Source: Escherichia coli
GTDB lineage: Bacteria; Pseudomonadota; Gammaproteobacteria; Enterobacterales; Enterobacteriaceae
Reading direction: 5' to 3' (one strand)
NCBI RefSeq assembly: GCF_030384885.1
Contig: NZ_CP128613.1
Length of the DNA: 64,000 bases
A program made the position numbers and the translations under genes. A model generated the notes under the pieces. It was given only the letters and a program-made list of their open reading frames with translations, did no database searches and was not told the DNA's origin. The first letter of the stretch is position 1; each line of letters begins with the position of its first letter. Shown here piece after piece: positions 25,671 through 25,892 of the stretch.

Positions 25671-25766
25671 TTAGTCATCCCATTTGTGGCTGAAATACGC
25701 GGCCAGAAACCCAGAAAATAAAATTATTCCCAGTACGGCCATAAAAACATTCATATTACCCAGCAT
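25671..25766 (-). CDS. mgtS: PhoPQ-regulated small membrane protein MgtS (YneM), 31 aa; absent from the supplied ORF track
   Basis: Minus-strand translation MLGNMNVFMAVLGIILFSGFLAAYFSHKWDD with GGAGG RBS; minus-strand hairpin plus T-run terminator at about 25600-25650. Confidence 0.8.
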   Translation of the reverse strand: MLGNMNVFMAVLGIILFSGFLAAYFSHKWDD

Positions 25767-25892
25767 TATTTGCCTCCGTTTATGGTGTGGTGTGTTTCCT
25801 CGCTTACCTTAATTTTCATCTCAATGAGAAAGATATTAGCAGAGGTAACCTAAACGAAGGCTGAATTAAATTTTTATTGTGTTCGACTTAAA

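Follow-up and report, generated by a model that had tools for sequence, protein, structure and literature searches.

The small membrane protein gene mgtS, its PhoP-box-like promoter and its neighbors in an Escherichia coli genome

MgtS among the Small Membrane Proteins Acting on Transporters

The gene mgtS (formerly yneM) has been characterized since 2008-2019. In Escherichia coli K-12, MgtS is induced in low Mg2+ in a PhoQP-dependent manner (PMC3536696; PMC11429745), associates with MgtA, a P-type Mg2+ importer, shielding it from FtsH-dependent proteolysis, and additionally modulates the phosphate/metal symporter PitA, with a raised level of intracellular Mg2+ (10.1101/2021.06.30.450655; PMC12648545; PMC10710835). 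The protein was detected by tagging and ribosome profiling (10.1101/511675; PMC11429745), and it was also co-crystallized by accident with a heterologously expressed amino-acid transporter, against TM5 of which it is packed (PMC5803215); the PDB chains 5OQT_C and 6F34_C are MgtS in the form of a single transmembrane (TM) helix. Cryo-EM of MgtA purified with MgtS gave no MgtS density (PMC10925321), and a single-gene deletion of mgtS had no growth phenotype under the conditions of one recent study (PMC11429745).

The most closely comparable systems are MgtR (30 aa) and MgtU (28 aa) of Salmonella enterica, membrane peptides acting on MgtA/MgtB. Similarly to MgtS, they are PhoP-controlled, single-helix peptides setting the FtsH-dependent turnover of P-type Mg2+ ATPases (PMC10710835; PMC12648545), whereas their families and loci are unrelated to those of MgtS, and MgtR promotes the degradation from which MgtS protects. 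No similarity of MgtR or MgtU to MgtS was detected, and the profile search gave only MgtS-like proteins. The pairs AcrZ-AcrB, KdpF-KdpABC, MntS-MntP, and sarcolipin/phospholamban-SERCA are also comparable, as in each of them a peptide below 50 aa in length, having only one TM helix, binds and modulates a larger transporter; however, their sequences, targets and effects differ from those of MgtS, and the likeness is a functional analogy only.

In the window (i.e., the whole 64,000-nucleotide stretch of E. coli DNA analyzed in this work), a minus-strand ORF of 31 codons is almost certainly mgtS of E. coli, which stands first in a short mgtS-mgtT transcript (Table 1). An earlier note, made from the sequence alone, had assigned this ORF to MgtS, and the identification proved correct: the gene is already well known and stands in its canonical context. 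The alignment which the note had proposed as a check gave 31/31 identical residues with K-12 MgtS (b4599), without a mismatch. The peptide matched two curated MgtS models, i.e., the NCBIfam equivalog NF033842 (80.6 bits, cut-off 35) and Pfam PF22865 (88.2 bits, cut-off 27), in both cases over profile positions 1-31 of 31, with E-values of 5.8e-23 and 2.2e-25. At the nucleotide level, a 461-bp region including the gene is 100% identical to that of E. coli 2013C-4282, where the RefSeq annotation reads "protein MgtS", and it was found (with at least 80% of the 461 bp covered) in at least 5,406 of 5,426 complete E. coli genomes, the RefSeq annotation under the match being mgtS, mgtT, dgcZ, and ydeE. 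The earlier statement that the gene was missed by the ORF track is thus true of the track itself, from which the ORF is absent due to the length threshold, but not of public annotation, in which there is no gap. It should be stressed that an ORF track with such a threshold hides functional small genes, in this case both mgtS and mgtT. The designation of MgtS as a known Mg2+-stress regulator, also made in that note, agrees with the role published for the identical K-12 protein.

The gene order is the same as in K-12 (ydeE, mgtS, mgtT, mgrR, dgcZ): the ORF is localized between ydeE and dgcZ, is followed by mgtT, and is convergent with mgrR. The neighboring dgcZ was recognized by NF007380 (519 bits), and position 25892, which was the upper bound of the range considered in the earlier note, directly adjoins the ydeE stop codon as the final intergenic base. 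The K-12 b4599 system shares with the window the locus, the ribosome-binding site, the promoter motifs, the terminator and the neighbors mgtT, mgrR, ydeE, and dgcZ. K-12 differs from the window at 5 nucleotides over the 461 bp, i.e., one synonymous change in mgtS (GGG against GGT), one difference upstream of the promoter box, two in the terminator loop (MgtT residue 15, V to T), and one at MgrR position +4, which is C in the window and T in K-12.

With 31 aa, one TM helix and a short polar tail at the C-terminus, the peptide has the composition expected of an MgtS protein. The maximum of the Kyte-Doolittle profile (19-residue window) is 2.34 and falls on residues 7-25; the hydrophobic helix comprises residues ~5-25 and is followed by the charged HKWDD end (C-terminal tail SHKWDD). 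The hydropathy and structures 5OQT and 6F34 show that MgtS spans the inner membrane with one transmembrane helix, and there, by analogy with the published K-12 data, it would guard MgtA from FtsH and act on PitA, which would increase intracellular Mg2+.

Table 1. Features of the mgtS locus in the analyzed window (strand relative to the window).
Feature	Position	Strand	Remarks
mgrR promoter	25446..25491	+	perfect PhoP box AGTTTA-N5-CGTTTA 25446..25462, 23-nt spacer, -10 TACTGT 25486..25491
MgrR sRNA	25498..25595	+	98 nt; coordinates by alignment to K-12 b4698
MgrR terminator	25569..25588	+	followed by U8
mgtT	25567..25671	-	34 aa, second cistron; PF23498 (MgtT) 93.3 bits; K-12 b4775
mgtS intrinsic terminator	25605..25643 (hairpin 25643..25613)	-	hairpin GGCCCCUUGU...ACAAGGGGCC then UGAUUUUU; inside the mgtT frame
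mgtS CDS	25671..25766	-	ATG start, 31 aa plus stop; product MLGNMNVFMAVLGIILFSGFLAAYFSHKWDD
Upstream ORF (probably chance)	25766..25819	-	17 aa, MKIKVSEETHHTINGGK; TAA stop overlaps mgtS ATG
Shine-Dalgarno GGAGG	25773..25777	-	6 nt upstream of mgtS ATG
C/A-rich tract	25784..25795	-	ACACACCACACC
Conserved leader block	25798..25812	-	UUAAGGUAAGCGAGG / UUAAGGUAAGcGAGG, 15 nt; ~30 nt upstream of Shine-Dalgarno
Predicted -10 TAATAT	25833..25838	-	read from sequence
PhoP-box-like direct repeat	25851..25867	-	AATTCA-GCCTT-CGTTTA (AATTCAGCCTTCGTTTA); direct orientation, 12 nt upstream of -10
ydeE	25893..27080	-	NF007472, 799 bits
Terminator-like hairpin at the ydeE end	25902..25918	-	CGTGGGGGCAGCCCGCG then CUUUGUUGAU

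Promoter and Leader of mgtS

The signals upstream of mgtS were for the most part described accurately in the earlier note. Its GGAGG ribosome-binding site is present, as is its candidate -10 hexamer (TAATAT), which follows a conserved PhoP-box-like repeat at a distance of exactly 12 nt. In the case of the GTTTA half-site(s), one canonical GTTTA was found (25855..25851), whereas its partner, 11 bp upstream, is degenerate (ATTCA, 25866..25862). Compared with the pattern (T/G)GTTTA-N5-(T/G)GTTTA, the downstream half CGTTTA agrees at five of six positions (most other species have TGTTTA) and the upstream half AATTCA at only three of six. The box, the spacer and the -10 hexamer of K-12 are identical to those of the window.

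Across the orthologous loci, the arrangement reads (A/G)TT(C/A)A-N6-G(T/C)TTA, a 12-nt spacer, and TAnnAT; the spacing is invariant in all 29 loci with complete upstream sequence, and in 27 of them the hexamer at exactly this distance from the box is of the TAnnAT type, the other two having weaker hexamers. As the relaxed PhoP-box pattern gave 75 matches in the window, with 63 +/- 7 expected from shuffles, it is not enriched there. Taken alone, the putative mgtS box is indistinguishable from chance within the window, and what argues for it is its conservation, rather than the quality of the match.

In architecture I of the PhoP-activated promoters, which is represented by mgtA, phoP, slyB, and pmrD, one PhoP box in direct orientation precedes the -10 hexamer by 12 nt (Zwir et al. 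2012, PMC3335776), and the predicted mgtS promoter fits this architecture. A generic sigma-70 scan of positions 25400-25950 found no -35/-10 pair, which is to be expected when an activator box replaces the -35 element. Published yneM-lacZ (PMC3536696) and mgtST-yfp (PMC11429745) fusions depend on PhoP/PhoQ. Judging from the motifs, phosphorylated PhoP would, in low Mg2+, bind AATTCA-N5-CGTTTA at the -35 position, 12 nt upstream of TAATAT, and we infer that transcription starts near 25825, giving a leader of ~59 nt with the GGAGG Shine-Dalgarno sequence, from which the 31-residue protein would be translated. The yneM transcription start site was reportedly mapped by Moon and Gottesman in 2009. 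At the very end of the ydeE CDS, just upstream of the mgtS promoter, a terminator-like hairpin was also observed (Table 1), and it may insulate mgtS from ydeE read-through.

All orthologous leaders in the alignment have GGAG or AGGAG at the position corresponding to this Shine-Dalgarno sequence. The 5' UTR is, however, best conserved across genera not at the proximal Shine-Dalgarno sequence but in the leader block upstream of it. This block is a near-exact reverse complement of the 3' end of 16S rRNA plus the first six bases of its trailer (CCUCCUUA followed by CCUUAA), as read from K-12 rrsB (…CACCUCCUUA, then CCUUAAAG…), and the part of the block pairing with the trailer is AAGGUAAG. The calculated duplex has a dG of -19.8 kcal/mol with the pre-16S tail, compared with -8.3 kcal/mol with the mature end, and a z-score of -4.4 relative to dinucleotide shuffles. 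Similar values were obtained, with the E. coli trailer sequence used throughout, for most genera, the exceptions being Salmonella arizonae and diarizonae and two Citrobacter lineages; the block itself is kept in most of the enterobacterial genera with mgtS but is degenerate in Salmonella. A conserved intramolecular structure was rejected as the reason for the conservation of the block, because RNAalifold found no conserved RNA secondary structure in the mgtS leader.

A TRIC-seq preprint of 2025 independently reported that the 3' extension of pre-16S rRNA contacts the mgtS 5' UTR in E. coli, and a "tethering" model was proposed (10.1101/2025.09.11.675593). The conservation of the leader block is consistent with tethering and is equally compatible with a plain upstream Shine-Dalgarno-like standby site for mature 30S subunits; its occurrence across genera may be regarded as new supporting evidence, not as proof of function. 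We only tentatively propose, as a possibility still rather doubtful, that this stress mRNA could attract immature (pre-16S) 30S subunits, or standby mature 30S subunits, through the block; under Mg2+ limitation, with ribosome assembly impaired, a build-up of pre-16S species would be expected. In any case, the block constitutes a phylogenetically supported and easily mutable test case for 16S-tail tethering of stress-mRNA translation.

Two minor elements of the leader are also worth mentioning. The 17-aa upstream ORF (MKIKVSEETHHTINGGK) was considered and rejected as a functional one, as its ATG is absent outside E. coli, lies ~7 nt from the predicted transcription start and has no Shine-Dalgarno sequence; the ORF is probably a product of chance. 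It forms, together with mgtS and mgtT, a series of three ORFs chained by TAATG overlaps. Moreover, a C/A-rich tract localized between the leader block and the Shine-Dalgarno sequence, and found in Escherichia only, resembles target/enhancer elements of the GcvB type; overproduction of GcvB raised the expression of a yneM-lacZ fusion 2.1-fold (PMC3536696).

mgtT, the mgtS Terminator and the Convergent sRNA MgrR

Three elements of the locus were absent from the earlier note, i.e., mgtT overlapping the mgtS stop codon, the convergent sRNA MgrR, and the pre-16S-complementary leader block discussed above. The mgtT ATG overlaps the mgtS stop codon (TAATG), and the overlap, in the form TRATGAA, is kept in 31/31 loci. 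The mgtT frame following it varies in length from 8 to 83 aa, and the MgtT peptide is therefore poorly constrained; a product of 34 aa was found only in Escherichia and in one Citrobacter lineage. According to published data, mgtT is co-transcribed with mgtS and PhoQP-dependent, and it has no known phenotype (Weaver et al., 10.1101/511675; Vellappan et al., PMC11429745).

The intrinsic terminator of mgtS is localized inside the mgtT frame, so that the synthesis of full-length MgtT requires read-through. Its hairpin has a folding dG of -21.9 kcal/mol (z -5.1), with none of 200 shuffles as stable, and is part of the consensus structure of the Rfam family STnc560. Transcription from the mgtS promoter would mostly end at this hairpin, and read-through would reach the 3' end of the convergent, PhoP-activated mgrR. 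The codons for the C-terminal third of MgtT lie opposite the MgrR terminator, on the other strand.

MgrR itself was recognized by the Rfam model RF01407 (STnc560) with 280 bits over 25464..25677. It is convergent with mgtS and mgtT and overlaps the mgtT 3' end in antisense over its final 29 nt; the convergent, PhoQP-dependent arrangement of MgrR and mgtS was described previously (10.1101/2021.06.30.450655). The PhoP box of mgrR overlaps the dgcZ stop codon (25450..25452). Judging from the spacing, the mgrR promoter would belong to architecture III, as defined in PMC3335776 (box 23 nt from the -10 hexamer), in contrast to architecture I of the predicted mgtS promoter (12 nt). The zero-mismatch pattern GTTTA-N6-GTTTA occurs only twice in the window, once as the mgrR box and once at 55306..55321 on the plus strand. 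The latter was rejected as a promoter, since it is placed inside an ORF of 1,822 aa (50765..56233, plus strand), and it is probably a chance match.

An obligatory linkage of mgtS and mgrR was considered and rejected, as MgrR without an adjacent mgtS was found in three genera (Citrobacter amalonaticus, Huaxiibacter, and Lelliottia). As a separate observation, Enterobacteriaceae bacterium RIT691 carries two MgrR cores ~1.6 kb apart, only one of which has an adjacent mgtS.

Conservation of MgtS and Alternative Readings of the Locus

For the comparative analysis, a genome scan was anchored on the conserved MgrR core and returned 34 loci, a sample biased towards loci retaining MgrR. Of these loci, 31 (window included) carry an intact MgtS ORF; they represent ~10 enterobacterial genera, such as Escherichia, Citrobacter, Salmonella, Kosakonia, Phytobacter, Pluralibacter, and Enterobacter. 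Among the 26 distinct coding sequences, the numbers of variable columns at codon positions 1, 2, and 3 are 12, 6, and 28, respectively, out of 31 each, and whenever the compared sequences differ in more than one codon, synonymous changes are more numerous than non-synonymous ones (e.g., 14 against 3 or 13 against 2). This pattern indicates that the MgtS peptide is under purifying selection and that the ORF is a real coding gene. When 1.84 billion representative proteins were searched exhaustively with HMMER, only 22 clusters were obtained, all of them MgtS-like; this is a small, restricted family.

It should be stressed that the single-sequence features of the mgtS ORF are not above chance and that a 31-aa ORF is in itself unremarkable: 23 ORFs of at least 20 aa overlap the surrounding 1 kb, several of them across the mgtS stretch in other frames. 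Such an abundance of short ORFs would be in line with a chance frame in the ydeE-dgcZ intergenic region, any transcript of which would be non-coding. This reading may be considered already refuted, with practically no probability left to it, by the pattern of conservation and by the solved structure: the frame, the start and the stop are kept in ~10 genera together with the third-position bias, curated protein families are matched exactly, and the protein was seen in crystal structures as well as by tagging and ribosome profiling. The assignment of the ORF to mgtS is significant because the exact match to curated models is combined with 100% identity to K-12 and with conservation across genera carrying a coding signature.

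The convergence with MgrR brings in another reading, in which the locus acts mainly at the RNA level, the mgtS-mgtT transcript being chiefly an antisense partner of MgrR through terminator read-through, with the peptide secondary. The placement of the mgtS terminator within mgtT and the 29-nt overlap of the mgtT and MgrR 3' ends speak for it, as does an RNase III-dependent site, accompanied by antisense transcripts, which was reported between yneM and mgrR (PMC5371410). However, a stop-codon mutation in the mgtS ORF abolished the stabilization of MgtA, whereas base-pairing mutants retained it (10.1101/2021.06.30.450655), and since the effect on MgtA is lost in the stop-codon mutant, it is the peptide, rather than the RNA, that is the effector. 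Moreover, an antisense role does not explain the strong constraint on the MgtS amino-acid sequence, and MgrR occurs without adjacent mgtS in the three genera named above. A locus working mainly through its RNA is thus highly improbable, and the reading of the ORF as mgtS, encoding a functional membrane peptide, is preferred.

Finally, the scan also returned mgtS-mgrR loci identical or near-identical to those of E. coli or Citrobacter from assemblies labelled as a Caldithrix MAG, an uncultured Raoultella MAG, and Chryseobacterium sp. 18061; this near-identity suggests contamination or mis-binning of the respective records.
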